NCBI RefSeq assembly: GCF_965363235.1
Contig: NC_134847.1
Coordinates: forward strand, 64,044,144 to 64,108,143
Source: Mytilus galloprovincialis
Taxonomy: Eukaryota
Length of the DNA stretch: 64,000 nt
Direction of reading: 5' to 3'
Shown one piece after another: positions 4,891 to 61,664 of the stretch. Numbering within the stretch: the first letter of the stretch is position 1; every line of letters begins with the position of its first letter. The position numbers and the translations under genes were made by a program. Under the pieces are notes generated by a model. The model made no database searches, had not been told where the DNA came from, and saw only the letters and a program-made list of their open reading frames with translations.

Positions 4891-5292
4891 TTATACAATT
4901 GCAGGGATCTCCATGACCTGTTTTACGATGGCGCCCCGCCATCGTTCCGTTACCTTGCGCCATCGTCAAATTGTCTCCTCCATGGTTAAATTTGTCTGCG
5001 CCATCGTTAAAATTATTGTCAATATTTATTTTTGTATCGTAGTCGTCGCCATTTTTGTTTGTCAAAATGCAAGCTTAATCATCTCCGATACTGGAGAGTA
5101 ATTTTACAGGTAAATATACAGTACGGTATAGACAAAAACCCTACGGCTGTACATAAATTTTACCAATCAAGTTAATAAAATTAGAAGGTATTATATATGT
5201 TTGAAGGTGAAATCGAATTTTATAGGTTTTGAAAAGTGTTCACAACGTAAATAAAATTGAAAATAATAAAAAGTGTTTTTATTCCGATAAAA

Positions 5293-6460
5293 ATGTCGAA
5301 ACGAGTACGTCATGCTTCTGAACCGTCTAGTGTTCAGTCAACTCTTGGAGCTTTTTTTGAATCTGGGGAAAATAGTAAAAAACGTAAAAGAAATGATGAC
5401 AGTGATCATGAGAGTGTTAAATCTGCTAGCCCAGTGAAATCTAAAAAGCATAGATCAACGTTTTACAAAGCTTGGGAATCAAAGTATCAGTGGTTAACTT
5501 ACGAAGAAGAAGAAGGTACTTTTATTTTTAATTAAAATTTCGTAGAATTATTAACCAAAAGTAAAAATCATTTGATTTTATTTCAATTGTAATTATTAAA
5601 AGTTAATTTTAAATAACTTTTCCGATGTTAATAACTTATTTAATTATTTTTTAACTTTGGACAAAAATTCCCGGTAAATAGCGCTAACACCTGACTAATG
5701 TTCGTTTTTAATTTAATTTGCACATTAAAACTTTGGGAATAAATCATTTTTACAGGAATGTTTTGTACATTGTGTATAAAATTCAAACAGCAAGCTAAAA
5801 ATACTGAAGTCTGGACAAAAGTGGGTTGTAAATCTTACAGAGAAGATGTGATTAGAAATCATGAACGTACAAGCTATCATCAAGTTTCTGTCAATATGGA
5901 AAGAGACTCCTTAATAAGTAAAACAACTGGAGGTATTGGTCAAGCATTAGACACTGTTGTAACCCTAGAAAGACGTGCGTTTATAGCTGCTCTTAGATGT
6001 ATGTACTTCTTGTTGAAAAAAGAAATACCACACACTTCGAATTTTGGAGACCTGCTGGACTTGGTCAAAGAAAATGGTTGCTCTTATTTGGATACACTTA
6101 ATGTGGAAGGAAGGGTGAAGTACCAGTCTCAACGAGCAATACAGGAGATGGTGTGGTGTTTAGGTAAATATTTCTTTATTTATTCTTTCTATAATAATTT
6201 ATACGCTTTATATTTTAAGAACGCATGAATCAGAAAATGATTTGTTTTACCTTTGTTTTATAGGTGAAACTATACGTGAAGATGTTGTTGCAAAAGTTGG
6301 ACAGTCAAGTTTTTATAGCATTCTGATTGACGAGACTACAGACATCAGCGTATTGAAACAACTAATAATTTATGTTAAATTTATGGTTGGAGAAGAGTGC
6401 CAAATCAAGTTTCAGCTTCTACAGCAGACAAGTGTCTTCTTTTCATCTTCAGTGGCATAA
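5293..6460 (+). pseudogene. hAT transposase remnant, N-terminal part (TTF-type zinc finger + start of DUF4371; ZMYM1/ZNF862/KIAA1586-like), 3 exons 5293-5515, 5756-6163, 6264-6460
   Basis: The peptide contains ...FYKAWESKYQWLTYEEEEG|MFCTLCIKF...NHERTSYHQVS...LIDETTDISVLKQLIIYVKF, typical of the zf-TTF/DUF4371 N-terminus of domesticated and active hAT transposases. Splice junctions are in phase (ggtact donor / acag acceptor; taggtaaat donor / ttttatag acceptor). Translation then terminates prematurely and the central roughly 500 aa of the transposase are missing. Confidence 0.6.
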
Positions 6461-6552
6461 ATATAGTTTAATAGCAATGCATCTAACTTTTTAAATCATA
6501 AACCTTTCTGTTAAACATGTCAGATACTTACCATTTTATCTCATTACTTTTC

Positions 6553-6757
6553 AGATTGTGAAAGAGGATTCAGTGTCCTCAACAGGGTGAAGACTAGGGC
6601 CAGAAACAGACTTTCACAGAAAGTCCTGAATAACCTTATGATGGTGTCCACTCAGGGTCCAGAGGGAAAGGACTTTAATTTCAACAGGGCTGCAGAGTTG
6701 TGGGCATCTTTGTCTCAAAGAAAACTTGACATTGGGATTATAAATGATGATGTTTGA
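6553..6757 (+). pseudogene. hAT transposase remnant, C-terminal dimerisation domain (DCERGFSVLNRVKTRARNRLSQKVLNNLMMV...)
   Basis: The CERGFSVLNRVKTRARNRL motif is the hallmark of the hAT family C-terminal dimerisation region. It is preceded by acceptor ttacttttcag and ends at stop TGA 6755-6757, about 110 bp inside the 3' TIR. Confidence 0.6.
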
Positions 6758-11539: not shown

Positions 11540-13291
11540 ATGGCTTCTTCTAAGTCTTTACAAAGAGGACAAATTCCAGTAGGTTGTGAACTTTGTGATG
11601 GTGGGAATAAAATCAAATTTAAATGTTTGGACTGTCAACTTTTAATGTGCAGCCGATGCAAGGATAAAGTCCATGCTAGATTTAAAAATGCAACTGAACA
11701 TAGGATTAGAGACATTAAAGAGCTGGATCTGGAAGAAGAAGTGGATACATTTAACTTTAGAGATGTTAAATGTCTAGAACATCCAGACCAGGCTTGCTGT
11801 GTATACTGTCAAACTTGTAAGAAAGTCATCTGTTTAAAATGTGTAACCAAAGTCCACAATGGACACACCTTTATTGATGAAGAAGAGCTTAATGATAAAA
11901 AGACGATAACTAAAAGTGGACAGAAGAAAACTGATGAAAGTATACATAATTTGACCAGTACATTACACAAAGTTCAGGACATAAAAGATCAGGAAGATGC
12001 TAAATTTAGAAAAATCAAGCAAGATATCTTTAGTCACAGGGATGCTTTTAAGTGTGAAGTTGATAAGCATGCTGATAATCTTGTAAAAGATCTGGAGCAG
12101 ACATGGGAATTAAATAGCCAGGAAATCGGGGCAAAGCATAGCAAGATTAAGAAAACCTTAGAAAACTTACAGAGGAAGAGTAACACTGTAAAAAGTATTA
12201 CAACTTCAAAAGATTTTGTCAAATTCTTTGATGATTTTGATAAATTTGCTGTTTCTTTGTGTGGAGCTACACCACAAGAAAACCTTGAGTTTTCATTATT
12301 GAGGAGATTCTTGCCAGACAAAATTACAATGGTAAATTTTGGATCAAAGGAAAATAGAGGAAACTTGGAAATTCAACATCCTAAAATTGAGTTTAAAATT
12401 GCTAAACAATTCACCACACAATTAAGAAATGTTCATAATATTTGCAGATGTTCTGATGGTACTCTGTGGATTTATGATGGTATTCTTGAAAAGTTGCAAC
12501 ATATAAAATTTGATAATCAAAATATTACGATTATGTCAGAGTCAAACTGTTTTTCTATTTGTGACATGGCAGCAATGAATGCATGCACAAACCTGGTTGA
12601 AGCAGCCTTAGGTGAAACAAAACTGTTTATTATCATTGAAACAAAACTGTTTATTATCAATAGTAGCACTGTATGGCTCAAACATGATGAATCCAATTAT
12701 GATGTGAGACCATATACAAATTGTACATCACAAAGTCAACCAGTATGTGTCCATATAACCAAAGATAACAGAGTTATAGTAGGTGTAGGACGAAGAGGAA
12801 CGAAGGCTGCTGTGGTAGTGATGGGCCAGGATGGTGGATGCTTGGAAAAATATGAAGAAGACAGCAACAAAGAACCATTATTTACACAGCCTAGATTAAT
12901 TACAAGCACCAACAATGGCAATATCTGTGTTGTGGATGGGATAGATTCTGATTGTAGAGTCTTGGTATTAGGAAAAGTAGGAGATATCAAACAGGTGTAC
13001 ATTGGTCAACCAAAAATCAACACTGAAGAAAAAACATTTACGCCCTCTGACCTGCTTACAACTCCTGCAGATAATATTGTAGTTACAGATATATTCATTT
13101 CTACACTACACATATTGAACTCTGAGGGGAAATTTATTGGTCATTACAATCTGCATGACATTGGAATTATATATCCATGTAGACTCACTTTGTCTACAGA
13201 AGGACATATTTATGTAGGATGCTCAAATACAAGGGACAGCCCAGAAACTTTAAAAGCCAAAATTTATGAGTTGGAATATTCTGGATTCTAG
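11540..13291 (+). CDS. RING-less TRIM-like protein: B-box1, B-box2, coiled coil, C-terminal NHL-type beta-propeller (583 aa, single exon)
   Basis: An uninterrupted 1752-nt ORF. Two B-box zinc-finger spacings are present (CELCDGGNKIKFKCLDCQLLMCSRCKDKVHARFKNATEH and CLEHPDQACCVYCQTCKKVICLKCVTKVHNGH). A K/E/Q-rich heptad region follows (residues ~120-230). The C-terminal half carries NHL-like blades (NGNICVVDGIDSDCRVLVL, ADNIVVTDIF, EGHIYVGC). The ATG context is acatcaaaaATGG and AATAAA lies 35 bp after the stop. The architecture resembles the TRIM2/3/71-like family. Confidence 0.75.
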   Translation: MASSKSLQRGQIPVGCELCDGGNKIKFKCLDCQLLMCSRCKDKVHARFKNATEHRIRDIKELDLEEEVDTFNFRDVKCLEHPDQACCVYCQTCKKVICLKCVTKVHNGHTFIDEEELNDKKTITKSGQKKTDESIHNLTSTLHKVQDIKDQEDAKFRKIKQDIFSHRDAFKCEVDKHADNLVKDLEQTWELNSQEIGAKHSKIKKTLENLQRKSNTVKSITTSKDFVKFFDDFDKFAVSLCGATPQENLEFSLLRRFLPDKITMVNFGSKENRGNLEIQHPKIEFKIAKQFTTQLRNVHNICRCSDGTLWIYDGILEKLQHIKFDNQNITIMSESNCFSICDMAAMNACTNLVEAALGETKLFIIIETKLFIINSSTVWLKHDESNYDVRPYTNCTSQSQPVCVHITKDNRVIVGVGRRGTKAAVVVMGQDGGCLEKYEEDSNKEPLFTQPRLITSTNNGNICVVDGIDSDCRVLVLGKVGDIKQVYIGQPKINTEEKTFTPSDLLTTPADNIVVTDIFISTLHILNSEGKFIGHYNLHDIGIIYPCRLTLSTEGHIYVGCSNTRDSPETLKAKIYELEYSGF

Positions 13292-13714: not shown

Positions 13715-14180
13715 CGAGACCACAATTGTCGTCCCTTGATTTTCGTTGTTCACGAATATAGTCCCTATAGTGTTGACAGTGGGTTACTTGCCAATATTTT
13801 TATACCCCTTCCAAATTTATTTCTCCATGTTTTATGCCTCAAATTGGAAGTAGGGGGGGGGGGGGGGTGAAATTACACTGTAAAAAAATTTGGGTCCAGA
13901 ATTTTAAAGGAAAGTATAGTGATTTGGTCCAGCTGAAAAAGGTTAAAAATTAGTATTTTGGGAGCTTTCAAAAGATTTCAAGGTGCCCTAAACATAAAAT
14001 TGTCCATATTTTGAGTTAGAGCTGATGAAGTTTTCTATAATTTTGATATAATTTGTCCCAAAAGTAGTACAACACACTGTAAAAATTTCATTGAGAAAGC
14101 GCAGGTGGGATTTTTTTAATTTTCATTTATGTTCTAAAAGAAATGCACTACAAATTAATTGTGGTCTCAGACCTAAGAGG
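13715..14180. mobile_element. MITE with TIR GGTCYGAGACCACAATTG (~470 bp)
   Basis: ggtccgagaccacaattg at 13715 and caattgtggtctcagacc at 14163. The interior contains a G16 run. A third partial end (ggtctgagaccacaactg) is at 20444. Confidence 0.6.
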
Positions 14181-14554
14181 TGAAATCTGTAAATATAGAA
14201 TCTGTACCTTAGCAACTTCCCTAAATTATTTGATGGTGATAATTTGTCAAATAGCATGAAACTAAAGGAGTTCTATTACTTATTTATGAACTCTGAATCT
14301 ACAGAAAAGAAGGTTATCTCAGACAATATGTGCAAAATGTGTTGTATAAATGACCCTTGTCTAACGCCTGTTTGGAAGAAGTCAAAAGTGGAGAGCTTGG
14401 TACTTAAAAGTTGAAGTCCATCAAATAAACCTCACTTAATTTGTATAAAAAGCACTTTACAATGTCTATTGTACCTGTTTCATTTCACATAATATCTTTA
14501 TTTTCTTCTGTAGAATAGTAAGTGGTTCAAATATAAGCCTGTTGAGACTAAAAT

Positions 14555-14622
14555 CATGGTGGGTATGGTTGTCCTGCGAGAGAACGTTCTGTGCTGGTGA
14601 TTCGGTCCTGACTGGTGCTGGT
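14555..14622 (+). repeat. Left TIR of the Transib-like element
   Basis: See the element entry. The three mismatches against the right TIR are all consistent with CpG deamination (CG to TG or the equivalent). Confidence 0.8.
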
Positions 14623-15469
14623 GGGTCCTGATTCTGTGCTGGTGGGTTTATTTACATTGTATCAGAACGACAATAAAACAACTGTTTTGTTGCTTAATTT
14701 TTCTCTGATACGTCATAAGTACCATGCAAAGTATATTACAACAATATTTTATTGCAAAAGTCGTGCAAGTTCGTTAAATGAAATTGTCCTGACGCTGTGC
14801 TGGTGATAAGAAAAACGGTCCTGGTTCTGTGCTCCTATGTCCTGGTTCTGTGCCTTTATATTTTAGTCAAAAGTGGCAATTATTCAAGATCGTTGTTGCT
14901 TAGCTGTAATTGACTAATTAGTTGTTATCTGTGTTCTTAAAATTGACATTATTGTGAATCTGTTTACTGCAATTATGAAAAAAGAACCCATAATTTTTGA
15001 ATTGACTGTTTTCTGTTTTTCTTATTTAAAATGATTTAAACAGATGTTATCGGTTATCAACATTTTAATGTAATGAAATTATAAACAAAACAGACATACA
15101 AGACTTACAAATCCAAGAGTCGCCTGACTTGGACCGGGCGCTAAAATTCTTGGGGATTTAACATGTTTTGTACGAATCAAAAATAAACAAAGTTGAGCAA
15201 TGCAAACAATCAGACTCAGGTGAGCCTGAACACTTCTTAGATGAGTTTGGATAATGAATTCAGTGTAATTTAAACATCCTGAATATTGTTTCTCTGACAA
15301 ATTTGTATGATACTGTAGATACTTTTCTTTTTATTCAACCAAATGAAACTCAGCCTTGTTTCTGTACGTTAGAATCGTGTGTCTTCAGCAGCTACAATCA
15401 GATTTCTTTGTAAACAAGTTAGTGCTGACTAAAGGATGACTAGTCTATTATAGTTTTTTTTTAATGTTT

Positions 15470-16000
15470 TTTAATGTTTTTTTTGGGGGGGGGGAGTAAG
15501 AGGGACGTCTGAATTTGTCAGAGAATGAAGACGATATAACCTAGATAACACTAACAGAAATAAGATTTTTTAAGTTTTGCATTTTATAATCCCAAAAGAA
15601 AGTCTGTTGTCAAAGATTTTTTATAATTTTAATTAAAATTGAGTGAAAAACGAGTGAACGGAAAAAAATACCAGTCTAGAAATAAATATTGGTAATATCG
15701 CGAGGCTTTTAAGTTTTGTGTTCCAAACACACCTTCTCTGTAGTAATGACTCGTTACTGAGGTATTTCACTTCACGCATTTGTTTCATTTTTTGATACAG
15801 TGAATTCTTAGTATTATAACATTAACATGTAACCTTTGTATATATTTTTTATAAATCGAAACTAAAGCCAGATATATTAAACATTTTTTATTTATGTGTT
15901 TTCAGGACAAAACAATCAGTTCAAACACGCCTTGGAAGTAGAATGCGATAAAATGATTGCCCATTTTTACTCCCCCCCCCCCCCCCCAAAAAAAAAAAAG
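15470..16000. repeat. Inverted pair of (T)n(G)n AGTAAG / CTTACT (C)n(A)n homopolymer junction motifs ~480 bp apart, inside the Transib-like element
   Basis: 15478-15505 ttttttttgggggggggggagtaagaggg is the reverse complement of 15955-15999 ttttactcccccccccccccccccaaaaaaaaaaaa. Similar C(n)A(n) junctions occur at 30826-30855, and a G16 run at 13851-13870. Confidence 0.5.
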
Positions 16001-18472
16001 AGCTTTTGCTGGATGGGGAAGAAGGATCAGATATGCAAATCAAAATCAATATTTCATCTTTTCGTGTAAGTTTTTTTTTCTCAGTTGAATTTATACTTGT
16101 TTGCACCTACAGAAATCGGTTTTGTTAAATGTGCTTTTAATTTCAAAAACACAGTGTGTTATAGTAGTCTCAGTGTTATAGTTGTCTGAGTTATAAGGTA
16201 GTGATATATGTCGTATGCTACGGTTTAATACGAAACTAGGTTAAAATAACGTAGCTAACTATAAGGAGACTCACATTATCCGATGAATTGATATCCGATA
16301 CTGTGTTATAGTAGTCTCAGTTTATATATGTATATGAATATAATTATGAAAGATAGCATGGTCACCAGTATGTGAAGTCCCTAGCTGTCATCTGAAGTTA
16401 ATACTAAGCATAGCTCTAGAAATCGACAGATAGTCATGACATTTAAAAAAAAATCTCTCTTGTTTTCGAAGTTTTTGTAGTTTTGTTTTACCTAAACAAA
16501 TTGACACACACATAAGTATAGTATTGTTTATTTTTTTAACTTAATATATACATGGGTAACACCGGTTACTGGGATAAAAAATCCTGTCACGTGGAAATAT
16601 TTATCAGAAAAAAGGATGGAAATATGAAAATTTACGTGCGATGGGTGCAACAGCATACCGACAATTAACATGGCTCACCAGGGTTGAATCTTAAAAGTAA
16701 ATCAAACTCCATAAACATTTTATTTACAGCCTAAAATACTATTCTTTTGAATAAAGATTTTTTGAAACCAAAAAAGATTATCTCCCCTTCCTACAAACAT
16801 ATTGCAATTTCACAAATATTTTACTGAATATGAAATGTTTTTATTCACATAATGTGTGATTCTTATGAATATAGAATACTTTTCGAAAGAAAAACTATAT
16901 AAAAGCTTAGTTTGGACATTTTTATAGCAATTAAAAATAAAACAGTTCACCTTTAGTATGGTAATGGCTATAATATAACTATACAGATTGATAGACTGAT
17001 TTAGTAATACCATCAATAAAGTGGAGTTAAAGTCTTATAGGATTGTAAGTATATTTTATTTTATCACCTTGCACTTTCACATTTTGACTGAACAATTTGT
17101 TCAATATTCTGACCAGTTGAACAATTTGATTTTATAAAACAAATTGCAATTTGGTCAAAATTTTGAATGAGTTGCAATTGGTGGATAGCAACACTAACAG
17201 TCAAGTCACTGTAAATATAAAAAAAAAGATGTGCTTACGATTGCCAATGAGATAACTGTCCGCCAAGTCTTTCGCCAGAACATACTATATTTTTTTTCTT
17301 ATCCTAGTTTAACTTCCATGCAATCTCTACCCCTTCATGATCATTAACTGTGAAATACTTCTCGGTATCTTCTCAATTAAGATGTCTGATTTATACATAG
17401 TTATGAAATAACTGTTGTGAGCACAAGATTCACTGCACACTTTCAAAGTTCTGCTTTATCAAACATTAAAACATGAACTTTTTGATCGGTACGAGTGAGA
17501 TTTTTATCTAAGATAACTTGGTTTATCTACCGGTGTTAGTTGAAAATGCGGCTTTGAAATAGCTTTGAAATTCACAGTAGCTGCGAGTATGCGTTGTTCA
17601 ATAATTTGTCCCTTAATGTTATTGTTTTATGTGATAAATTTTTGTGTTGTTACACCACTGAACCAATGAATGAGGAAAGGAGGAGGGGTTGGTTTGATGG
17701 AGTTGCATGAGGTGTGTGGAACGCATATTTAACTGAATAAACCAGTCAAACCTTAATGTCAATATAAGACCCCCTCTTATAAATGTCGCTTTACTTTAAG
17801 CACCTTTTAAAACCGTTTAAGTTAACATATTATGTAAAGAATCATCAATTGAAGGGCATTTAATATCTTGAATAAAACTATTCTAATTAGATATATTTTC
17901 ATCTGATATTGGACGGAAGATGTTGCTCATTTATGTAATATGAGTTACTATTATTTGAAAACGCTTATAAAACAGCCAAATGGATGCACTAAAGTGAAAA
18001 AAGGAGTCACAGATCCGATTGAATACAATTATCAGCCAAATTTTATTGATTTTGTAACATTTGTTTCAAATATGACAAACCTTTTACCCAAAATCACCAG
18101 CACCGTATCAGGACCCACCAGCACAATGACAGGACCCACCAGCACAGTATCAGGACATAAATAAACTGAGAAAGTGCAAAATTTTCTTAAATTGCACGGG
18201 TTTTTCACAAAATAATTTTGTCTTTTGGATTTGAGTATACAAAGCAGATTTCATGAGCATTTTTGTTTTATTTTTCCAGTTCTAGATTTTCTGAAAATGT
18301 GCCCTTTTGTGCTACGCTTACTGAAACAGTTTAGAGGGTTAATTTTTTAATGGTTTGCTTATAAACCCATAAAAAACAAAATTGAAAAATCTCAACTGTT
18401 TCCTTCCATTTTTTATGAGAGAAAACGTCAAAAATCATCATTTTCGTCTTTGTTTACATTTTTTCAATGATC

Positions 18473-18540
18473 ACCAGCACCCGTCAGGACCGAATCACCA
18501 GCACAGAACATTCTCTCGCAGGACAACCATACCCACCGTG
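18473..18540 (-). repeat. Right TIR of the Transib-like element
   Basis: Reverse complement of 14555-14622. Confidence 0.8.
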
Positions 18541-21479
18541 AAAATTGCATACAAGTTTTCACTAAAAAGGCAAAAAACTTTGTATCAGACCATACTGTCT
18601 GCAAGAAAAGTTAAATGCAAGAGTCTTTTTGTGCTCAGATTTGTTGTATCATGTCACATGAGTATAGAAATGATAAAAAAGACACAATTTTTTATTTCTT
18701 GCCCATACAGAAATTGCTAACAAAAGCACATAAGTTTCACATGTGAAGCACATGAGATGCAAGTAAGAATTGTATGCAAATCAGGTTGCTCATATGTGAA
18801 GTTTGGTAGTTCATATGTGCCCACAAAAATCTAACATAATGCTCACATGTGCAATTCAAACCTCAGGTGAGCTTTTATCATCCATGTTAGTTTTATGTTA
18901 GTTTTGTACTTTGAAAAGTTTTTCCATTCTTCTAACCATTCAAAACTAACCTACATCATTGCTCATATGAGCTTTTTCAAAATGACATGCCCAGTCATGT
19001 ACTTCCTGTAAATTCAAATTCATGAAAAGCATGCAATAAATGGAGGTAGATGGATATGGAAAATGTTAAGTCCTATATTGTGCTATTTGAAGAAAGGCAT
19101 TGTTGAAATCTGATAAAACCAGTGTGGCTGTGGTTAATTATTTGTAAGTTATCATTTCTATTTCATTATTTTCATTTTTTGTGTCAGATTTTGAAATATA
19201 TTACAATTTTAAGTCCTTTATTGGAATATATATATACAGGTTGGCTTCAAAATAAGTACTACATGTATAAAGATTTTTTCCTTTTAAACTTTTTGAAATA
19301 CAGTACTTATTAATCAAAGACATTCATTGTGTACTAAACTTGCAAGTCCCTCTTTTAGTTTTATAATGTAATGTTATGTTTTTATTCATGATCATGATTA
19401 TTGTTTAAATAAAAAAAATTAAAAAAAATGATATGAAAATCATAATTAACTGACAATAATTAAAGAATAACTCTTTTAACATGATGTATCAGTTATTTTA
19501 TTTTCAACTGAATTATTTAAGATTTTCAATTAAATTAGAAAAATATTCCTTTTTTAAAGCAGCCATTTTGTTTTGGTCAACTATAATATTCACGTGTGCA
19601 ACATGTTAGCAACTGCTCATATGAGCAATCTAATAAAATGCACATGTGAAACAAAAGCTCATATGAGCAGTTGCACATGAGGTTTTTAACATGCAAATTA
19701 GGTTAGTTTCATATGTGCAATTTTTTTGCTCACAAAATGCTCACCTAATTTGCATGTTAAAAAACTCGTGTGCAATCATGTTAGTTTCTAACGTGAGCAT
19801 CTTATGTGCAACTTATGTGCAACATGTAAGAACTTTTTGGTAAGGGTATAGCCTCAATATGCATTTTTTAATGTCAATATGTGGCACGGCCTAAATTGAC
19901 CCTAAATTATTTGTAGTCTTACTTGGCCTAAGACCATTTATACTAATATGATATGTTATTTGTAACTTTTCTTTCCATTTAAAGTACATTCAATACATAT
20001 GTAAGGATTATTTATAACCAAAAAGCTTCACAAATTTTAAATTGCTGGAAAATATTACATCTTCATGTAATGCCCCCCTTCATTAAAAAACCTCAATTTT
20101 TAGGCGCAGGCTCATATAAATTTGACTTTTGAATAATTATGCTAAGTCTGACAAATCAAATGAGTACTCTATTGCATTTAGTACATGATAATTGATATAT
20201 TTAAGCACTTAAAAAGTATATTTTTGCAATATTTTAATTTTTAATGCCCCAAGTGTTGATAGTTGAAATTTTTCAATTTTAACGTCAAAATTTAACACGC
20301 AAAGTTGAGTATAGAATTTAACATACTGTCTATAATATATCTCCTATTGTTATGATACATTGTAAGCAGTGTTATAATTTATAAAGCTTTAGTCATACCA
20401 AGTTTTATTAAGATTGGTCAACTTTTTCTATCCTATTAGGTCTGAGACCACAACTGGTCATGTCTCAAGATTTAAAGGAGTGAAAAAAACCTTAAAATTA
20501 TCAAATTTTTGAATTATGAATTAATTGCAAGAAAAAAGTGTCAATACTGCAGAATATAAGGGGAAATTTTGATATTGATATATTGATATTGCAATGAATA
20601 AATATAGCATATTTTATGTTTTAAGACATATACAAATAAGTCAGATGACCAAAACTGTTTATTGATTTCTTATAGGAGTTATATTGTTCATGAAACACAT
20701 TTTTAATTAATTTAAATTTTCAAAGTTTTTTGCAAAGAGTATGATAGAGAAAAACTTATAGTGGCACTACTATTCAACAAAGTAAAAGCTGAAAAATGGG
20801 CTATCATGACCAATCGTCAACTGATCCTTTATGAGCGTTATTGCCCTTGAACCAAAAATGTTAGATTTTGCAGAACTTATGTTAGGTACTCATAAATGTC
20901 AAATATGTAAACCAAAGTAACTAGACCTACAAATAAGTTAACATGACTGAAATTGACAATTTTTTGTAAGCTCTTATATGAGTTATTGCCCTTGAAAGAC
21001 AATTTTTGCCAATATTTTTTTTAATTTTTTGCAGAAAATATGATAAATGCCCTCAGAGAGAAACATTAACATGATTAAATGGCAAAAAGTTTATCAAATT
21101 GATATCTACAAATAAGTTGATATTAAATGACAAAAACAATGTTTTTGACTTATTAATGTCACTTAGTGTATTGGTCTATTTTACATACACGATCTACATT
21201 AATGGAAGTAAATAAGGTCTATAACAGATAAGAGTACAAGCAAACCAAATATCCAAATACTAGAATCATATTTTTACCAGTTGAGTAATACCAGATCATA
21301 GGATCCTCTAAATGTTTATTTTGAAATAACTGCTTGAAAAAAATACAGTTTTTTTGTAATGTGAATTTCTCATTTATGATTGATTAATAATATTGTTATT
21401 GTTTTAATGCCACTTTTAAGCCCCACATTAAGGATATTTCGTGATGGCCAGTTTGTATTGGTTGAGGAAGGTGGATCTC

Positions 21480-23390
21480 ACTTATAAGTAATATGATAAC
21501 TATATTTGGTATATGGATTCCTTGCAACATCTTCATGTCGATCTGTCAGGGTTAAGCTGACCTTGCCCTCATATTCATGGTTCATTGGTCAATGTAAAGT
21601 TATTTTGTTTTGGTTTGTTTTTTATGCCCCACCTACGATAGTAGAGGGGCATTATGTTTTCTGGTCTTCGCCTCCGTTCGTTCATCCGTCCGTCCTTGCG
21701 TTCCTCCGTTCGCCCCACTTCATGTTATTGTCGAGCCTGCAACTTTTGTTGCAGAAAGCTCGACATAGGGATAGTGATCCGGCAGCGGCGGCGTTAGCTA
21801 ACTTCTTAAAAGCTTTATATTTTAGAAGGTGGAAGACCTGGATGCTTCATACTTTGTATATAGATGCCTTATGTTACGAAGTTTCTGTCAGTCACATGTC
21901 CAATGTCCTTGACCTCATTTTCATGGTTCAGTATCCACTTGAAAAAAAAGTTCAGATTTTTTGTAATGTTGAATTCTCTCTTATTATAAGTAATAGGATA
22001 ACTATATTGGATAAGTGCGTACCTTGCAAGGTCCTCATGTCTGTCAGACAGTTTTCACTTGACCTCAACCTAATTTCATGGATCAGTGAACAAGGTTAAG
22101 TTTTAGTGGTCAAGTCCATATTTTAGATACTATAAGCAATAGGGCTAGTATATTCGGTGTATGGAAGGACTGTAAGGTGTACAAGTCCAACTGGCAGGTG
22201 TCATCTGACCTTGACCTCATTTTCATGGTTCAGTGGTTATAGTTAAATTTTTGTGTTTTGGTCTGTTTTTCTCATACAATGTGCAATAGGTCTACTATAT
22301 TTGTTGTATGGAATGATTGTAAGGTGTACATGTCTAGCGGGCAGATGTCATGTGACCTTGACCTCATTTTCATGGTTCAGTGGTCAAAGTTAAGTTTTTG
22401 AGTTTTGGTCCTTTTATCTAATTCTATATGCCATAGGTCAACTATATTTGGTGTATGGAAATAATTTATGATCTTTATGTCAGTCGTGCAGGTTTTTTTT
22501 TACCATGACCTCATTTTCACGGTTCATTGCACAGTGTTAAGTTTTTGTGTTTTGGTCTATTTTTCTTAAACTATAAGTAAAAGGTCAACTATATATGTTG
22601 TATAGAAGCATTGTTAGCTGTACATGTCTGCCTGGCATGGTTCATCTGACCTTGACCTCATTTTCAAGGTTCATTGGTCTTTGTTTAGTTATCTTGGTTA
22701 ATGTTCTGTTTATGTGATAGTTGTAATAAATTTTAGCTTTATACTTAGGACTATCAACATAATATCAATGATTAGTATAGAAGGCGAGACATTTCAGCAT
22801 GCCCACTCTTGTGTTAAAGTTTTTGGTCAAGGTAGTCTTTGATGAAGTTGAAATCCAATCAACTTGAAACTTAGTACAAATGTTCCCTATATGGTATAAT
22901 CTTTCTAATTTTAAGGCCAAATTATATTTTTTACCAAATTTCACAGTCCATTGAACATGAAAAATGATAGTGCGAGTGGGGCATCCATGTACTTAGGACG
23001 CATTCTTGTTTAAGTACTTTATTCAATAGGTCAACTATATGTTATGTTTTGAATGATAGCAAGAGGAACGTGTCTCTCTGCCAGATATCACATGACCTTT
23101 TCCTCATTTATTTGGCTCAATGGTCCAATATTAATAGCAATAGATCAGCTATGTTTGGTTTATGGTATACTTATGAGGCGTACATGTCTGTCTGGCAGGT
23201 ATCATGTGAACTTTAGCTCATTTTCAATTTTTTGTGTTTTAGTCTGCTCTTCAATTACTATAAGCATTATAATAGTTTAGTTATATTTGGTATATGAAAT
23301 AATTGTAAGGTATTCATGTCACATCTTCCTGTATCTGTTTGACAGAATTTATATGACCTTGACCTAATGGTCATGGATCTTTAAAAACAC
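21480..23390. repeat. Satellite-like tandem array, ~150-bp units with core gaccttgacctcattttcatggttcagtgg, ~12 units
   Basis: Units recur at roughly 21530, 21890, 22040, 22190, 22340, 22500, 22650, 23080, 23210 and 23340. The array is interrupted by the two halves of a MITE (5' half 21640-21790, 3' half 22780-23000). The 197-aa ORF at 21506-22099 is a translation artefact of the repeats. Confidence 0.75.
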
Positions 23391-39821: not shown

Positions 39822-40867
39822 ATTCAGTGATGACTTGGCAACATAACTCAAGTATAACTTCTAAGATCTTTCAGAATGACTTGTATTGAAAAAAAATTAT
39901 GTCCATCAATGTGCAGTGAAATTTGTAAAGATTATTTGATGCATCTTGATGTTTTATTTATGTTACTTAGAATGAATTAGATTATATAACATTGTGCACA
40001 CCACTAGCAGTGCACCAAGGATTATTTGTGAATTAAGTAGACATTCATTGAATTTCCTTAATCCTCAATACACTCTTTACTTTAGTAGTGGTAAAGTTTT
40101 CTGTTTTCTATAAGATTTGTTCTAGATGCCTGTGAAATTTAATCTCAACGGAAAAATTGTGCAATGTAGCACATTTAACCATTAAGAAACTTATATAACA
40201 GAGATTTGTGAAACTTGATTTGTTTTATAAGAGCCATTAAAGATGTATTTGTTGACATGAAGGTTTTAGGTTCCATAATTTAATTTGTAGGTCAAAAGTT
40301 GTCAATGGAAAATAGAACAGAAGATTAAAAGCCAAGTGCTTTCAATTACCATAGGATAAATATGGTTCAGAATAGTACATGTATATTCAAACTTTGAAGT
40401 ATATCCAAGCAATAATCATAATGGTTTTGATACAGAAGTACATGTATTATTATGTATAAGGTTGAATAATAATTAAGACTGTGTTTGCATTCTGATCTTC
40501 TGAGTATTTTGTAAAAGATATATTGGTTTGCTGCTTACTTCCGTTTTCATTGGTTCATGGAACACAAGTAAGATTATTGCATGCATGGTTCTTGTATTCA
40601 TAATTTCATTACAATTTGGAAAAACTTAAGTACATCATTTGGGTTCCTTCATTTTTTTCCCCCAACCTTCAACCTTTCATGTAAGTAGGTGTTGTAGTAA
40701 AAAACAACATAACATGTTATTTAAGGGAGTAAAAGATAAGAATCGGTCAAACAATTCAAAAGTTGTAATCAATAGCACTTTAATCTAAAGTTGACATCAC
40801 TTCTGCAGATGGTACATGTCTTAAAATATCTATGTACAAATACCAAAATAAAGTATACAAAGTTTCT

Positions 40868-41350
40868 TGTAAAGAGAATAGATACATGAGTGTTTTGGTG
40901 GGTGTAGGTACGATGTAGCAGTGATTCTCTAAGCTTGTTGTAAAGAGAATAGATACATGAGTGTTTTGGTGGGTGTAGGTACGATGTAGCAGTGATTCTC
41001 TAAGCTTGTTGTAAAGAGAATAGATACATGAGTGTTTTGGTGGGTGTAGGTACGATGTAGCAGTGATTCTCTAAGCTTGTTGTAAAGAGAATAGATACAA
41101 GAGTGTTTTGGTGGGTGTAGGTACGATGTAGCAGTGATTCTCTAAGCTTGTTGTAAAGAGAATAGATACAAGAGTGTTTTGGTGGGTGTAGGTACGATGT
41201 AGCAGTGATTCTCTAAGCTTGTTGTAAAGAGAATAGATACATGAGTGTTTTGGTGGGTGTAGGTACGATGTAGCAGTGATTCTCTAAGCTTGTTGTAAAG
41301 AGAATAGATACATGAGTGTTTTGGTGGGTGTAGATACGATGTAGCAGTGA
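40868..41350. repeat. Minisatellite, 71-bp unit x ~6.8, >97% identical copies
   Basis: The unit tgtaaagagaatagatacatgagtgttttggtgggtgtaggtacgatgtagcagtgattctctaagcttgt starts at 40868, 40939, 41010, 41081, 41152, 41223 and 41294. The only variation is catgag versus caagag. Confidence 0.9.
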
Positions 41351-43504
41351 TTCTTCATTAATCTTATGACATCATTACTACCTGTAGGGATGATACAGCA
41401 GACTATATGTCATTATTTATTTACGCTAATTGATAATATACCTGTCTTGTTTTGTCACCTGGAGCAATCGGATAACAATAGGTCACATGTTGTTCTATGA
41501 TCATGTCTTATTAAATGACCCGACCAAAAAAATGTTTGTACGTTATATTGAAGTTGTAAATACTGTAAAACTGAATCCAAAAGACAATTGGTGACAGGCT
41601 TTTTTTTCAAAGTGTGAAGCTATACTGGATAGTTTTAAAGATGTTATCAATAATACACAATTTAATTGATGAATTAAGAACAGTCTAGTGAGTAGACATC
41701 CACTTACAGCAAAGCTGGGTAGTTAGTATCTTTGAGAACAGCAATTAAAAAGTGTCCTTTTAAGGTCTTTTTTTCTGAAATCATGAAGCATATAATAGGG
41801 GTTGGGTAATTTAATTGGAAAAATCAGACACATAAGATATGAAGAATTAGAGGAAATCCTTGGGAGGAAATCAGTACAGTGATAATGCATATTAAAAATG
41901 AGTATAACAAGATATCATAGAATTACTTGTTTTTGGTTCAAATATTTTATTTTTTAACATAATAATGACACTATAAGATTCAACTTTACTGTGTATGTTT
42001 AAAACAGAATGAGAGTGCTTTTCAGATACATCAAATATAAGCACCCTAGCAAGGATGTGTATTAGTTATAAATCCTTGACCCCTAGTACTTGTTATACAT
42101 ATAGTCCACATCTCCACATGACAGAGATAAGATACAGACAAAAAGATTTCCTATCTAATTGAATCTTATGCTTGATTATGTTTAACAAATTAGTTATCCA
42201 TAAAGTATTTATAGTTACAATGATTGTTGGTAATTAATAATTGATAATTATTGTATAGTTATTTCATTATAGTATGTAGTTTTAATTGTGGATTACACAT
42301 TATTGTCAAGTCATGATAATTAATTTACAGTGAAATCATATTATGTGAATCTATCAAAAATGTGGTCAAGTTTGGACAGCGATTTGGTTTAAAGAAGTAA
42401 AATTTTATACAGATGTGCCTTCTTTATGCATTTTAATTCAAGAACTGGTTTGTTTCTTTCTAGCGTAAATAAAAATGTAAGTGAAAAAAAATCAGTACTG
42501 AGAGGTTTCACTGTAAATATTGCCCAGATGGATAAATAAATGACCTTAGTTTAGAAAACATGTGGAGTAAGAGATCCTTATAAATGAAACTTTGGATTGT
42601 AGCTTTCCTTTGGGTTGTAGGTATGTTCTATTCACTATTTTGGGCATTGTAAATTTGTGGCTTTTTTTCTTTTTTGCTTTTAGAAATTGGGACATATATT
42701 GTTTTACAATTTGATGCATATGTATTACATGGTAAAGATTATGAACAGATTTATTTGAAATCCAGTTAACCGAAAGTGACAGGAGTTTAATAGTATCTTC
42801 CATATCTATTTACTTTTTTATGAAGATTTGTATAATATTACAACTCTCAGTTTTAATGTTGGGAGTATCATTATTGTCATTGAAAACATTACACTTTGCA
42901 TGAGTAATGATAAAGATAATGCTTACAAATAGCTGGAATGAACTTTGACATATTATCATGATTATCAAATAAGCAGAACTAGAGTTGGCTATATACCAGA
43001 TTGGTATAAATACAAACAAGATACCAGATTGGTATAAATACAAACAAGAGTCATATAGTGGAGTATACATCAATGTTCCTTAACCATAAAACACAATAAA
43101 ACGAGAAAGGCATAAAAAGGTCAGTTTCAGGTCTTCAATAAAAGATATATGGCTTCACAAAAACAAAAGTTTAAAATTTAAATAATGAATGAAATTAAAC
43201 CATCTGCCATCAAGAAAGGGCAACAAATGTTATGAATTACTTCATTTCGGAAATTTCCCCATGGTGGGATATTATTTTTGGTACAGAAAATACAAACTGA
43301 GTAACAAAGGTAGTAACAAATTTGTCAAATATTTTACAATCTATTAATTTTGGTATTTTTGAATCTTAAAAAAAAATCTGAGTTATCCCCCCTTGGCTGC
43401 TTTTTAGATTTACAAATTTTTATGAATGAATTTTTCTTTTTTAGATATATAATTAAATGGATTTAAATAATGTGGATTAATTCTGTGGAATAACTTCATG
43501 ATAA

Positions 43505-49143: not shown

Positions 49144-51166
49144 CGTTCATTTTTAGCTCACCTGGCCCGAAGGGCCAAGTGAGCTTTTCTCACCACTTGG
49201 CGTCCGTCGTCCGTCGTCGTCGTTAACAATTTACATTTTGAACTTCTTCTAGAGAACCACTGAATGGAATGGAACCAAACATGGCATGAATGTTCCTTAT
49301 GAGGTGCTGACCAAGAGTTGTTACTTTGTAGCCGATCCATCATCCAAGATGGCCGCCAGCGGCGGACTTAGTTTAACATAGGACCCTATGGGAAATGCAT
49401 ACAAATGACTTCTTTTAGAGAACCACTGAATGGAATGAAACCAAACATGGCATGAATGTTCCTTATGAGGTACTGACCAAGTGTTGTTACTTTGTTGCCG
49501 ATCCATCATCCAAGATGGCTGCTAGCCGGGGACTTAGTTTAACATAGGACCCTATGGGAAATGCATACAAATGACTTCTTTTAGAGAACCACTGAATGGA
49601 ATAAAACCAAACATAGCATGAATGTTCCTTATGGGGTGCTGACCAAGTGTTGTTACTTTGTAGCCGATCCATCATCCAAGATGGCCGCCAGCAGGGGACT
49701 TAGTTTAACATAGGACCCTATGGGAAATGCATACAAATGACTTCTTTTAGAGAACCACTGAATTGAATGAAAATAAACATGGCATGAATGTTCCTTATGA
49801 GGTGCTGACCAAGTGTTGTTACTTTGTTGCCGATCCATCATCCAAGATGGCCGCCAGCGGGGGACTTAGTTTAACATAGGACCCTATGGGAAATGCATAC
49901 AAATGACTTCCTCTAGAGAACCACTGAATGGAATGAAACCAAACATGGCATGAATGTTCCTTATGAGGTGCTGACCAAGTGTTGTTACTTTGTTGCCGAT
50001 CCATCATCCAAGATGGCCGCCAGCCGGGAACTTAGTTTAACATAGGACCCTATGGGAAATGCATACAAATGACTTCTTTTAGAGAACCACTGAATGGAAT
50101 AAAACCAAACATAGCATGAATGTTCCTTATGGGGTGCTGACCAAGTGTTGTTACTTTGTAGCCGATCCATCATCCAAGATGGCCGCCAGCGGGGGACTTA
50201 GTTTAACATAGGACCCTATGGGAAATGCATACAAATGACTTCTTCTAGAGAACCACTAAATGGAATGAAACCAAACATAGCATGAATGTTCCTTATGGAG
50301 TGCTGACCAAGTGTTGTTACTTTGTAGCCGATCCATCATCCAAGATGGCCGCCAGCGGGGGACTTAGTTTAACATAGGACCCTATGGGAAATGCATACAA
50401 ATGACTTCTTCTAGAGAACCACTAAATGGAATGAAACCAAACATTGCATGAATGTTCCTTATGCCGTGCTGACCATGTGTTGTTTCTTTGTAGCCCATCC
50501 ATCATCCAAGATGGCTGCCAGCATGGGACTTAGTTTAACATAGGACCCTATGGGAAATGCATACAAATGACTTCTTTTAGAGAACCACTGAATGGAATGA
50601 AATCAAACATGGCATGAATGTTCCTAATGTGGTGCTGACCAAGTGTTGTTACTTTGTAGCCGATCCATTATCCAAGATGGCCGCCAGCATGGACTTAGTT
50701 TAACATAGGACCCTATTGGAAATGCATACAAATGACTTCTTTTAGAGAACCACTGAATGGAATAAAACTAAACATTGCATGAATGTTCCTTATGAGGTGC
50801 TGACCAAGTGTTGTTACTTTGTAGCAGATCCATCATCCAAGATGGCCGCCAGCGGGGGACTTAGTTTAACATAGGACCCTATGGGAAATGCATACAAATG
50901 ACTTCTTTTAGAGAACCACTGAATGGAATAAAACCAAACATGGCATGAATGTTCCTTATGAGGTGCTGACCAAGTGTTGTTACTTTGTAGCCGATCCGCC
51001 ATCCAAGATGGCCGCCAGTGGGGGACTTTTGAATGAAATTAAACATGTTCCTTTCCTTATCAATGAGGTTGTGTTGTCACTTTTAGCCAAATTTTATATT
51101 TTTCATATGATTTCAAAAACCCAAGTAGAATCAGGTGAGCGATACAGGCTCTTGAGAGCCTCTAGT
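49144..51166 (+). mobile_element. Composite non-autonomous element: conserved hairpin head (ttcatttttagctcacctggcccgaagggccaagtgagc...cgtcgtcgttaac), internal 166-bp satellite array, conserved tail (caggtgagcgatacaggctcttgagagcctctagt)
   Basis: The head at 49144-49232 and tail at 51131-51166 are shared with the element at 62894-63700. The termini are imperfectly inverted (agctcacctg / caggtgagcg). The interior is a tandem array. Confidence 0.65.
49230..51020 (+). repeat. Satellite-like array, 166-bp unit x ~11, each unit with the GC-rich core catcatccaagatggccgccagcgggggac
   Basis: Exact 166-bp periodicity; for example the repeated minus-strand ORFs start at 49321, 49487, 49653, 49819 and 49985. 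Units are about 90-97% identical. The 62-aa MMDRQQSNNTWS... ORFs are artefacts of the periodicity. Confidence 0.9.
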
Positions 51167-57100: not shown

Positions 57101-58954
57101 GGAATATGCCAATAATTGTCCAAATTAAGTTACAGATGTTCAAATGTTTCAGATAGCTCTTCAAGATCTGTGATTTAGAAACACTTACTTCCAATACTTT
57201 AAAATGCAAATGGGTGCTTGCTTATTATAGCAATGCGTGCATTTTTTATGGAACAACCCAACTACAACACCAAAACCAGAACAACTTTTACTTAGGTCAA
57301 TGAGACCAGAAACCAGCAACTCACAAAAAAGATACATCAGGTTGGTCAATGAGACAGCAGCCCAACAACGCCTAAAACAATCCCAATGACATCTTGTAAG
57401 GTAAAAGACATGGCAATCCAATAACACAAAGAAGCCTGACTAGACATCTAACAATATAGAAATAAGAAGAAGTGATATGTGTGCACTTCCAATGAGACAA
57501 CTCTCCATCCAAGTTACAATGTGTAAAAAGTGAACACTTAAAAAAATGAGATATGTTGAATGTATGAAAGAGGCAGCATCACAACAACCGTAAAAAAACC
57601 AATGACATCTAGAGGTAGCCATTTGGTCCTCTACAATAAACTTGGGCCTTTCCAAAGGTCAAATCTCTAAAAGGCCTTTTAACAGTTGTTGCATAGTTAG
57701 TAACAGTAATAAAGAATTTTGCCTAACAGCATGGTGCTACATATAGTATTGTGATGCTTAGTTGTGCATTGTATTTATGATATGACAATATAATAATACT
57801 TTTATAATTATGTCTGCAACTCACATCTACTTGAGTTATAAGTAGTCAGCTATGTTGAAATTCTACATACATCTCACTGGAGAAGAAATCTAAGGTTTAA
57901 ATTGCATTATTTTAATCTTAAAGTTGTCACAGAACATATTTTTCATGACACTTTTATTCATTTTTGTGACACCATTATTCAAGCAAACTTTTATGTACAA
58001 TTAAGCATTAAGATCTTGCAATTTAATATGTTTATTTTCTTATTAAACATTGTTAAAAATGTAAAATTATGCAGTTTGATTAAAAAAACGTCTACCTATA
58101 TGTGAATTTCTGCACCTTGAAGAAACTAAGTAACACATTATTCAAGCAACATTATTGAAACCTGAAATTTTATCACTTAAAAAGTCATCAAAGGCTAGCC
58201 TGAACTGTCTGTATGTTTATAGTGTACAGGTTGAGTTGGTATAACCCTTAGGCAGTTCACATATTTTTTTCATCTGATTTATAAAAAAATAGTGTCTTAT
58301 ATTGAAAAAGATTGCTCATCCATAAAGCTGTATTTATTTATTTTCACAGGATGAATTATCTGTTTTAAATTAGGTCTCCTTCCTGGGGAGAGTGTCAAAG
58401 GTCCTTTGCCAAAAAAAGTATAAACAAACATCAAGAAAATATATTATAGCCTCAAGTTTGTTCATAGAAACATTTCTGTAATTTACATTGCATTTTCCTC
58501 ATGAATTACTTACAATTTGGAAATTATGCAAAAGAAGCATTACATACATATATAGATGTGTCTAGCTACTTGTTGAAGCAACAGGGTTGATTAATTGATT
58601 GATTGTTGGTTGCATTTTATCCAGTGGCAAATATTTCATAAATGTTCAGAATGAGCAAATCAGCAATAAATACTATAGGCAGGACCTGTTAGGGGGGCGT
58701 TCTGGGATGTAGATTTGGGAAAATTGGACTGCCACTGGAAAATGAAGGTATATTAGATAGATAAATGTGAAAAATGCCATGGAAAAAGGGAATTATAAAA
58801 GTATTTTTGGATTAATGTAAAACAAATGACTGCAAATCATTATTTAATCTATCTGCTTTTAAAAGTATTGATGACTAATCTTGTTGTTTGTGAGAATGCA
58901 GCTCTTCAACATGTGAAAACATACATGTTTTTGGTTTTAATGGTTTTGTACTAG

Positions 58955-59090
58955 TCACTTTTTGGGCCCTTTATAGCTTGCTGTTTGGTGTGAGCCAAGG
59001 CTCCTTGTTGAAGACTGTTCTTTGACCTATATTGGTTTACTTTTACAAATTGTGACTTGAATAGAGAGTTGTCTCATTAGCACATCTATT
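58955..59090 (-). repeat. SINE-like repeat family B (caatgagacaactctccatccaagtcacaatttgtaaaagtaaacc...ggctcacaccaaacagcaagctat.aagggccc)
   Basis: It matches, as a reverse complement, the other copies at 61665-61795 (+) and 57485-57545 (+, partial). Related sequence lies at 51215-51345 directly 3' of the first composite element. Confidence 0.65.
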
Positions 59091-61571: not shown

Positions 61572-61664
61572 GTTAGTTCATACATGTTGTCCGTTACAAT
61601 ACATTGTATAAAGAAAATGGCTAATGCTCTTTTGACAAATAGATATAAGAAGACGTTTTATGAG

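Follow-up and report, generated by a model that had tools for sequence, protein, structure and literature searches.

A non-autonomous DNA transposon of probable Transib type, with 69-bp terminal inverted repeats, in the mussel Mytilus galloprovincialis

The described transposons that most resemble the element reported here include: (i) Transib elements (e.g., Transib-N, Drosophila Hopper and Kodama, and HzTransib), which are recognised by published convention from CAC termini and a 5-bp target-site duplication (TSD) (PMC1131882, PMC7165386), (ii) EnSpm/CACTA and Chapaev elements, with a published EnSpm signature of CAC...GTG termini and 3-bp TSDs (PMC12730594), (iii) hAT elements, a subset of which are the only transposons besides Transib to make 5-bp TSDs (PMC1131882, PMC7165386), and (iv) RAG-like (RAGL) transposons of the RAG1L-RAG2L, ProtoRAG type, known from Pinctada and deuterostomes. 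The CACTA, Mirage, Chapaev and Transib (CMCT) clade shares CA..TG termini and has TSDs of 2-5 bp (PMC12730594). The RSS-like terminal inverted repeat (TIR) of Transib is composed of a heptamer, a 12- or 23-bp spacer and an A-rich nonamer, with a 38-bp consensus of CACAATG-N23-AAAAAAATC. The nonamer is not universal, as the TIRs of HzTransib resemble the RSS heptamer and not the nonamer, while its TSDs have a constant length of 5 bp (PMC4840297). Transib targets are reported to be GC-rich (PMC4840297; bioRxiv 10.64898/2026.08.26.747230). A mollusc-wide, ORF-based survey recorded a single Transib ORF, whereas every genome analysed contained CMC elements (PMC10294476). By the Repbase rule, a non-autonomous element is assigned to a classified family when it has the same TSD length and its terminal positions 1-11 align with at most one mismatch (PMC4455052).

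The element of this study resides in the repeat-rich genome of the Mediterranean mussel, Mytilus galloprovincialis, at positions 14555-18540 of the window (the whole 64-kb stretch of DNA that was analysed). It is 3986 bp long and its ends are the TIRs. The left TIR (14555-14623, + strand) is 69 bp and begins with CATGGTG (ancestrally CACGGTG), while the right TIR (18472-18540, - strand) is also 69 bp and ends with CACCGTG, which reads CACGGTG as the reverse complement; the terminus sequence of the element is CACGGTGGGTATGG. Repeat finding returned arms at 14554-14623 and 18472-18541 (70 nt, 96% complementary), and base-by-base comparison gave 66 of 69 identical positions, beyond which similarity collapses. 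An earlier note on this DNA had put the TIRs at 68 bp with 65 identities, a trivial difference, and had read the two termini just as they are found here. A 28-nt TIR probe matches two sites in the 64 kb, one in each TIR, with none expected in shuffled sequence. The locus is almost certainly a TIR-type DNA transposon.

The mismatches between the TIRs are at TIR positions 3, 31 and 59, all of which fall in CpGs, of which the TIR has five. The earlier note had described all three as CpG-to-TpG changes; this is correct for positions 3 and 31, which are C/T differences, and not for position 59, where a transversion has replaced G by T (ACGGG to ACTGG). An allelic copy of the same insertion in a second M. 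galloprovincialis assembly (L001) and a second complete copy on a metagenome contig (L012) both read CACGGTG at the left end; thus, the T residues at positions 3 and 59 are private to the window haplotype. Both ends of L001 and L012 have the CACGGTG terminus, as do the right ends of the window copy and of three further copies (L025, L026 and L031).

The boundary of the element is exactly CAC...GTG. Similarity stops immediately after CACCGTG in five independent right-end junctions (window/L001, L012, L025, L026 and L031), and two left-end junctions likewise stop exactly at CAC, with flanks that are unrelated between copies. The extra T/A pairing beyond the TIRs of the window copy is, thus, a chance match. 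A boundary of TCAC...GTGA with a 3-bp AAA duplication was considered and rejected, since the base past the right terminus varies among the junctions (A, T, G, A and A).

With the boundary fixed by these junctions, 5 bp is the only length at which the flanks of the window copy form a perfect duplication: AAAAT at 14550-14554 is identical to AAAAT at 18541-18545 (neither assigned a strand), while lengths of 2, 3 and 4 bp give mismatches (AT/AA, AAT/AAA and AAAT/AAAA). The same AAAAT flanks border the allelic copy. The duplication is as the earlier note had described it, and a chance match, which that note had named as a possible refutation, is improbable (about 0.002): a perfect 5-bp flank match is found for 0.18-0.21% of random position pairs in the window, and any perfect match of at least 4 bp, with a 1-base boundary shift allowed, for 1.8%. 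The 5-bp length is observed at this one site (n = 1), in two alleles of a single insertion.

Further copies, full or partial, are present on eight metagenome contigs: L012 is complete, and partial copies are on seven ENA metagenome contigs. The family is, thus, multi-copy in Mytilus. Among these further copies, L012 alone retains both flanks, and it does not repeat the 5-bp duplication for which the earlier note proposed to check other copies. Its flanks, GGTTT and TTTAT, instead share a 3-bp TTT match with a chance probability of 2-6%. These flanks are short (31 and 91 bp) and belong to an apparent short-read metagenome contig, which makes a chimera possible; furthermore, the repeat in which the left flank terminates is not continued on the right side (shuffle p 0.35-0.96). 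The L012 contig is probably chimeric, and for these reasons (very short flanks and an interrupted repeat) it was set aside as a decisive test of TSD length.

The subterminal regions include a 20-bp motif, GTCCTGNNNCTGTGCTGGTG, in an asymmetric arrangement. The left subterminal region (14625-14858, + strand) has four direct copies that start at 14625, 14786, 14818 and 14839, and the right subterminal cluster (18095-18156, - strand) has three tandem inverted copies (18095-18114, 18116-18135 and 18137-18156). Two variant copies reside inside the left TIR, at 14571 and 14605. Eleven motif copies are counted in the element overall, those on the left in direct and those on the right in inverted orientation, and all seven motif hits in the 64-kb window are inside the element. 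The positions are conserved among copies: the left motifs are offset by 71, 232, 264 and 285 from the left end in both the window copy and L012, with the same four-copy pattern in L001, and the right motifs keep distances of 385, 406 and 427 bp to the right end in each of the three copies. Over the first ~310 bp, the window copy and L012 are about 96% identical, while the interior (14859-18094, unstranded) is non-coding, differs between copies and has only patchy similarity of 71-85% to L012. A conserved terminal ~310 bp with a divergent or replaced interior is the usual pattern of elements mobilised in trans. The GTCCTGNNNCTGTGCTGGTG array, conserved and asymmetric, is a probable binding site for a transposase. 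Subterminal repeat arrays are a classic hallmark of CACTA/EnSpm elements but are not exclusive to them, and hAT elements often have subterminal repeats.

The element encodes nothing and is non-autonomous. The longest ORF entirely within it is 74 aa, in agreement with the earlier note (none above 75 aa), and an ORF of 112 aa that starts with TTG crosses the right TIR into the flank. Six-frame translation of the element gave no Pfam match at E<=1, and neither an Rfam nor a tRNA scan of the window gave a hit. Long ORFs are likewise absent from the ORF lists of copies L012, L028 and L027, and coding capacity was not found in any copy by the Pfam scan and ORFs of the window copy or the ORF lists of L012 and L028. 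The Pfam scan, the ORFs of the copies and ORF-based protein searches revealed no autonomous copy and no Transib or RAG1-like transposase linked to the ends of the element. A composite of five element ORFs, used as one query in a word-indexed protein search, had no matches. An exhaustive search of representative proteins with one element ORF returned three clusters, to which a profile search added nothing; these ORF-based matches are short spurious ORFs from non-autonomous copies. A 19-mer of the TIR had chance matches to bacterial and phage DNA when searched against prokaryotic genomes and viral contigs, with no extension past the 19-mer, and two more scans of viral contigs with other TIR and motif patterns yielded nothing. 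A partner transposase somewhere in the genome, which the earlier note took an intact copy to imply, is presumed here and not observed.

The insertion is recent and belongs to the M. galloprovincialis lineage. Its youth is apparent from the low divergence of the TIRs and from a CpG observed/expected ratio of 0.66 in the element vs 0.42 in the window. The allelic copy carries the insertion with TIRs that match at 68 of 69 positions, and differs from the window copy by a 485-bp indel (16727-17211). M. edulis (L002) and M. trossulus (L003) are without the whole 6.7-kb segment (window 13723-20468) in which the insertion resides and, thus, do not offer a clean empty site; the ancestral empty site predicted by transposon insertion is GAGACTAAAATTGCATAC. 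The locus is, thus, a minor instance of the presence/absence variation already described for M. galloprovincialis. In sum, the element is a real, fairly young, ~4-kb piece of non-autonomous mobile DNA.

A mechanism can be proposed in which a DDE transposase of the CMCT clade, supplied in trans, would bind the GTCCTGNNNCTGTGCTGGTG subterminal repeats, pair the ends and cut at the CAC termini. Both 3' ends would then be joined to the target at positions staggered by 5 bp, and repair of this stagger would generate the AAAAT duplication. The cis-acting parts are the 69-bp TIRs with CAC...GTG and the asymmetric 20-bp subterminal repeats, the latter as likely transposase sites. What we infer from this architecture is the family of the transposase, the chemistry and the role of the repeats in binding.

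The CAC...GTG termini place the element in the CMCT clade with high likelihood. Within the clade, the combination of a CAC terminus and a 5-bp stagger points to a Transib-type (RAG1-related) transposase as the most likely partner, and the probability that the element is specifically of Transib type is estimated at roughly 0.55. The invariant first three bases of Transib, CAC, are found at the ends of the element, with the CATGGTG of the window left end being a private C-to-T change. The heptamer CACGGTG agrees with the Transib CACAATG at five of seven positions and with the RSS heptamer CACAGTG at six of seven. Like described Transib elements, this one combines CAC...GTG with a 5-bp TSD, is geneless and depends on functions in trans. 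It differs in that its 69-bp TIRs are internally repetitive and are accompanied by arrays of an additional subterminal motif, it has no 12/23-like asymmetry, and it resides in a bivalve, a group with hardly any Transib ORFs on record. Nothing resembling an A-rich nonamer is found after a spacer of 12 or 23 bp (positions 20-28 are CTGCGAGAG and positions 31-39 are CGTTCTGTG), an absence of a clear nonamer that is shared with HzTransib (PMC4840297). The AT-only target counts against Transib, as AAAAT is not of the GC-rich type. The Transib assignment made in the earlier note is, thus, upheld in its CAC...GTG boundary and 5-bp duplication, and weakened by a TSD from one insertion, the absence of a linked transposase and the lack of a nonamer. 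In a literature search, no paper had CACGGTG and Transib together, nor CMC-Transib and Mytilus. That a genuine Transib-type (RAG1-related) lineage was recently active in Mytilus, where ORF-based surveys found essentially no Transib, is a tentative proposal with the odds somewhat against it.

The alternative that survives best, though less likely than Transib, is a non-autonomous EnSpm/CACTA or Chapaev element whose subterminal repeats would be bound by a CMC transposase that makes a TSD of 2-4 bp (typically 3 bp), in which case the 5-mer of the window would be a mutated 3-bp TSD in an A-rich context. Both CAC...GTG termini and subterminal repeats are just as characteristic of EnSpm/CACTA (PMC12730594), and the multiple direct and inverted subterminal repeats, the several-kb size and the TTT on either side of L012 fit such an origin. 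CMC elements are also common to all analysed mollusc genomes, from which Transib is nearly absent (PMC10294476). Against these similarities, the element begins with CACGG and not CACTA (positions 4-5 are GG, not TA), and the insertion that is documented best shows a perfect duplication of 5 bp, beyond the 2-4 bp range reported for CMC. With the boundary fixed, the flanks of the window copy mismatch at 3 bp (AAT vs AAA) and match perfectly at no length but 5 bp, with identical AAAAT flanks in the second assembly. As the TIRs of this insertion diverge by about 1/69, mutation of a shorter TSD into a perfect 5-mer is improbable (estimated below 1%). The 3-bp match of L012, in turn, has the chance probability given above, and its flanks seem non-contiguous, as expected if the contig is chimeric.

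An origin from another or undescribed superfamily, e.g., a 5-bp-TSD subgroup of hAT with a coincidental CAC, is improbable, and a TIR of 69 bp is long for hAT. The subterminal repeats, frequent in hAT elements, are consistent with such an origin, as are degenerate hAT-like coding remnants 8 kb upstream (5251-6754); these remnants, however, are not bounded by the TIRs of the element. The TSD length also fits, with hAT TSDs reported as 5, 6 or 8 bp (PMC7165386) and hAT elements abundant in bivalves (PMC10294476). By contrast, hAT elements are reported to have an invariant G as their third terminal nucleotide (PMC1131882), and this position is C in all intact ends of the element.

Less probable still is a non-autonomous derivative of a RAG-like transposon such as that of the pearl oyster. 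The 5-bp TSD and the CAC terminus are shared with RAGL elements, which include non-autonomous forms in Pinctada imbricata, also a bivalve (PMC7204232). In protostomes, the consensus of RAGL TIRs is CACTWMCAAACKTYKBB, with a conserved AAA at positions 8-10 (PMC7204232), whereas the CACGGTGGGTATGGTTG of the element agrees with it only at CAC and has no A-rich block at positions 8-10; RAG1L/RAG2L remnants are, moreover, found in no copy by the Pfam scan and ORF lists. That the locus is not a mobile element, its inverted repeat and flank match having arisen by chance or local rearrangement, has nothing beyond AT-rich flanks in its favour and is already refuted by independent copies with the same ends in unrelated flanks, as well as by a 96% identical 69-bp repeat unique in the window and an internal motif architecture kept between copies.

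As it stands, the element is a matter of routine annotation, i.e., another non-autonomous DNA transposon family in mussel; as its Transib label derives from a single insertion and a matching transposase was not found, it counts as an ordinary repeat and not a discovery. If the Transib-type reading is true, mussels would harbour an unrecognised, possibly still active, Transib transposase, and the ends would be recognised through long TIRs with repeated 20-bp motifs and not through an RSS-like heptamer-nonamer. Confirmation would be of modest importance: it would show that Transib was recently active in bivalves, provide the 69-bp TIR and 20-bp motif as bait for the transposase, and add mussels to the taxa that are useful for understanding end recognition by RAG1-related transposases.

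The element at 14555-18540 (3986 bp) carries terminal inverted repeats (TIRs) of 69 bp that are 66/69 identical in a base-by-base comparison, with the likeness breaking down beyond position 69; the inverted repeat of the earlier note is thus upheld and its figures of 68 bp and 65/68 are revised. A repeat search places the arms at 14554-14623 and 18472-18541 (70 nt, 96% complementarity), and a 28-nt terminus probe matches only the two TIR sites of the 64-kb window, where shuffles expect no match. The termini read CATGGTG on the left and CACGGTG on the right (reverse complement), and are adjoined by perfect AAAAT flanks (14550-14554 and 18541-18545), as had been described. The TIR has five CpGs, and all three mismatch sites fall in CpGs. 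Two of these mismatches are C-to-T transitions, as proposed for all three, and the third is a G-to-T transversion; given the CpG location and the two transitions, the suggestion that the copy was methylated after insertion is reasonable.

The element has no coding capacity. The longest ORF lying inside it is 74 aa, in agreement with the claimed ceiling of 75 aa, and an ORF of 112 aa that begins with TTG extends across the right TIR and out into the flanking DNA. No Pfam match is detected in the six-frame translation of the element, even at E<=1, and ORF inspection of the other family copies reveals no coding capacity. Neither an autonomous copy nor a transposase tied to these ends was found among the copies recovered or by protein-library and Pfam searches.

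Three orthologous loci are available for comparison, from another M. galloprovincialis assembly, M. edulis and M. trossulus. In the second M. galloprovincialis allele the insertion occupies the same site, between identical AAAAT flanks; the TIRs of this allele are 68/69 identical, with position 31 as the sole difference. As this allele has CACGGTG at the left terminus and G at TIR position 59, two of the three mismatches in the window copy are recent mutations private to its haplotype, and the ancestral termini were CACGGTG at both ends. The CpG observed/expected ratio of the element (0.66, versus 0.42 for the window) fits a young insertion. The M. edulis and M. trossulus loci lack the whole segment 13723-20468, including the element, and thus provide no clean empty site. 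This 6.7-kb segment is bounded by a direct repeat of ~17 bp (GTCCGAGACCACAATTG ... GTCTGAGACCACAACTG), and the empty site of the two species holds a related motif (TCCCAAGATCAAACTG) and a repeated TCATG; candidate origins of the segment are an insertion with a long target-site duplication (TSD), a recombinase-type insertion and a loss from the other lineages. Two further length differences separate the M. galloprovincialis alleles: 1146 bp to the right of the element (18701-19846), replaced by only 'CA' in the second assembly with no clean TSD and possibly either an indel polymorphism or a further mobile element, and a 485-bp indel within the element (16727-17211), present in the window and absent from the other allele. 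Upstream lies an intronless TRIM-like (B-box/NHL) ORF of a large paralogous family (11540-13291, plus strand, 583 aa). Its identity is 98% with an M. galloprovincialis protein, 90% with M. edulis and 81% with M. trossulus, and its exact product has no record in the gene index.

Further copies of the family reside on metagenome contigs. A contig scan with a 19-nt TIR core returned 11 chance matches and one true copy, L012 (JACSEI010000620.1), a 3102-bp element with TIRs 68/69 identical. Over aligned blocks of ~450 bp (left) and ~650 bp (right), its ends share 88-92% identity with the window copy, and its interior shows a patchy likeness of 71-85%. The protein library was also searched exhaustively with an open frame of 85 codons close to the right end (17907-18161), which recovered three clusters of short ORFs from additional copies on ENA metagenome contigs. 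Fragments of the family occur in seven or more distinct ENA metagenome assemblies (L025, L026, L028-L032), one record being labelled aquatic, which suggests a high copy number if the contig DNA is mussel DNA in the samples. Three of these contigs (L025, L026 and L031) span the right terminus and continue into 64-77 bp of unrelated DNA. The likeness ends exactly after ...CCCACCGTG in the window and its allele, L012, L025, L026 and L031, where the first flank bases are AAAAT, TTTAT, GACCC, ACACA and ATTGT, respectively, with no strong target motif among the five junctions. This common end point places the element boundary at CAC...GTG, as judged from the aligned junctions, such that the additional complementary T/A pair of the window copy is due to chance; the unrelated flanks likewise indicate a multi-copy family.

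With the boundary so fixed, the flanks of the window insertion match perfectly at k=5 only, as opposed to AT/AA (2), AAT/AAA (3), AAAT/AAAA (4) and TAAAAT/AAAATT (6). A perfect 5-bp match occurs at ~0.2% of random position pairs in this window of 31% G+C, and a perfect match of >=4 bp with a one-base boundary shift allowed at 1.8%. L012, the sole other copy with two flanks, reads ...GGTTT|element|TTTAT..., where the flanks match over 3 bp (TTT) instead of 5 bp. This contig appears to be a short-read metagenome assembly of a repeated element, and since such contigs can mix copies, its two ends may derive from different ones. Its flanks are 91 and 31 bp. The left flank is a short interspersed Mytilus repeat (...GGGCCCTTTATAGCTTGCTG...GAGAGTTGTCTCATT...) whose four window paralogues (58925-59120, 61620-61810 on the minus strand, 51170-51370, and 57440-57600 on the minus strand) all run well past the junction position, and the right flank bears no significant likeness to the repeat continuation (shuffle p 0.35-0.96). 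Owing to these short flanks, the apparently discontinuous left repeat and a 2-6% chance probability of TTT/TTT, L012 is not a counter-example of equal weight. One insertion thus supports a TSD of 5 bp, and one doubtful contig weakly contradicts it.

The ends of the element have a repeated architecture. A motif, GTCCTG-(N)-CTGTGCTGGTG, occurs within the TIR as two variant copies, and its canonical 20-bp form lies in direct orientation at left-end offsets of 71, 232, 264 and 285 bp and inverted at right-end offsets of 385, 406 and 427 bp; all seven canonical matches in the 64-kb window are within the element. The offsets are identical in L012, and the same pattern is seen in the second allele. 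Over its outermost ~310 bp, the left end of the window copy is ~96% identical to that of L012, with identity decaying beyond. Trans-mobilised DNA transposons usually combine conserved, repeat-bearing ends with a variable interior that is non-coding, as is the case here, and we infer that the motif is a putative transposase binding site. The interior also contains an imperfect inverted repeat of 32 nt, made up of the homopolymer blocks T8G10 and C15A12 (15463-15494 and 15973-16006) with 480 bp between them. BLAST blocks that cover its left arm and flank its right one are common to L012 (71-85% identity); thus, the structure probably did not arrive as a later nested insertion.

Arrays of subterminal repeats are a CACTA hallmark, and those found here speak for an EnSpm/Chapaev-type element. 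CMC elements are, moreover, reported from all genomes analysed in a mollusc-wide ORF survey that recorded Transib once (n=1; PMC10294476). CAC..GTG termini with a 3-bp TSD are read as EnSpm (PMC12730594), but the 5-bp duplication exceeds the 2-4 bp of EnSpm, with 5-bp TSDs credited among superfamilies only to Transib and some hAT (PMC7165386); an EnSpm/Chapaev assignment is a tentative second choice. The CMCT clade (CACTA/Mirage/Chapaev/Transib, including EnSpm and relatives) is typified by CA..TG termini and 2-5 bp TSDs (PMC12730594), a published signature with which the CAC...GTG ends and TSD agree, so the element can be placed in this clade with good confidence from its termini. Within the clade, the 5-bp TSD favours Transib, whose defining features are CAC termini, a heptamer resembling CACAATG and TSDs of 5 bp (PMC1131882), and a Transib-type element is the preferred reading (probability of roughly 0.55). 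The Transib assignment of the earlier note is thus supported in part, by the CAC termini and by the 5-bp TSD at one insertion, and the partner Transib or RAG1-like transposase in this genome is a prediction. The TIR has no A-rich nonamer behind either a 12- or a 23-bp spacer. HzTransib likewise has no A-rich nonamer (PMC4840297). Transib targets are typically GC-rich, whereas the target here is AT-only. A recent preprint shows variation in both TSD length and termini inside Transib itself, and argues that transposase homology ought to take precedence over them (bioRxiv 10.64898/2026.08.26.747230). Another or an undescribed superfamily is improbable, and hAT in particular has G at terminal position 3 (PMC1131882), where the element has C. 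A RAG-like derivative is the least probable, as the TIR agrees with the protostome RAG-like consensus CACTWMCAAACKTYKBB (PMC7204232) at CAC and departs from it thereafter.

In the proposed mechanism, a CMCT-clade DDE transposase supplied in trans would bind the repeated motifs, synapse the element ends and cut at the CAC termini, a step that in Transib and RAG runs through a nick and then a hairpin on the flanking DNA. The 3' ends would be joined to the target with a 5-bp spacing, and repair of the gaps would leave AAAAT on either side.

Elsewhere in the window, open frames resembling hAT/ZBED-type transposase remnants by eye (5251-6754, plus strand), including a C-terminal hAT-dimerisation-like stretch (SDCERGFSVLNRVKTRARNRL), lie within or beside a minus-strand Myb/CDC5L-like gene. 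Tandem arrays are present at 49242-51028 (166 bp x 10.8 copies, 94% matches), 40860-41354 (71 bp x 7, 98%), 1971-2621 (190 bp x 3.4) and 22060-22679 (147 bp x 4.2).

The feature at 14555-18540 is real and has well-defined limits. It is an ordinary non-autonomous DNA transposon, one of a Mytilus family with multiple copies. Confirmation of the Transib reading by genomic copies and an autonomous element would indicate recent Transib activity in mussels, and the family would then be of somewhat higher interest.
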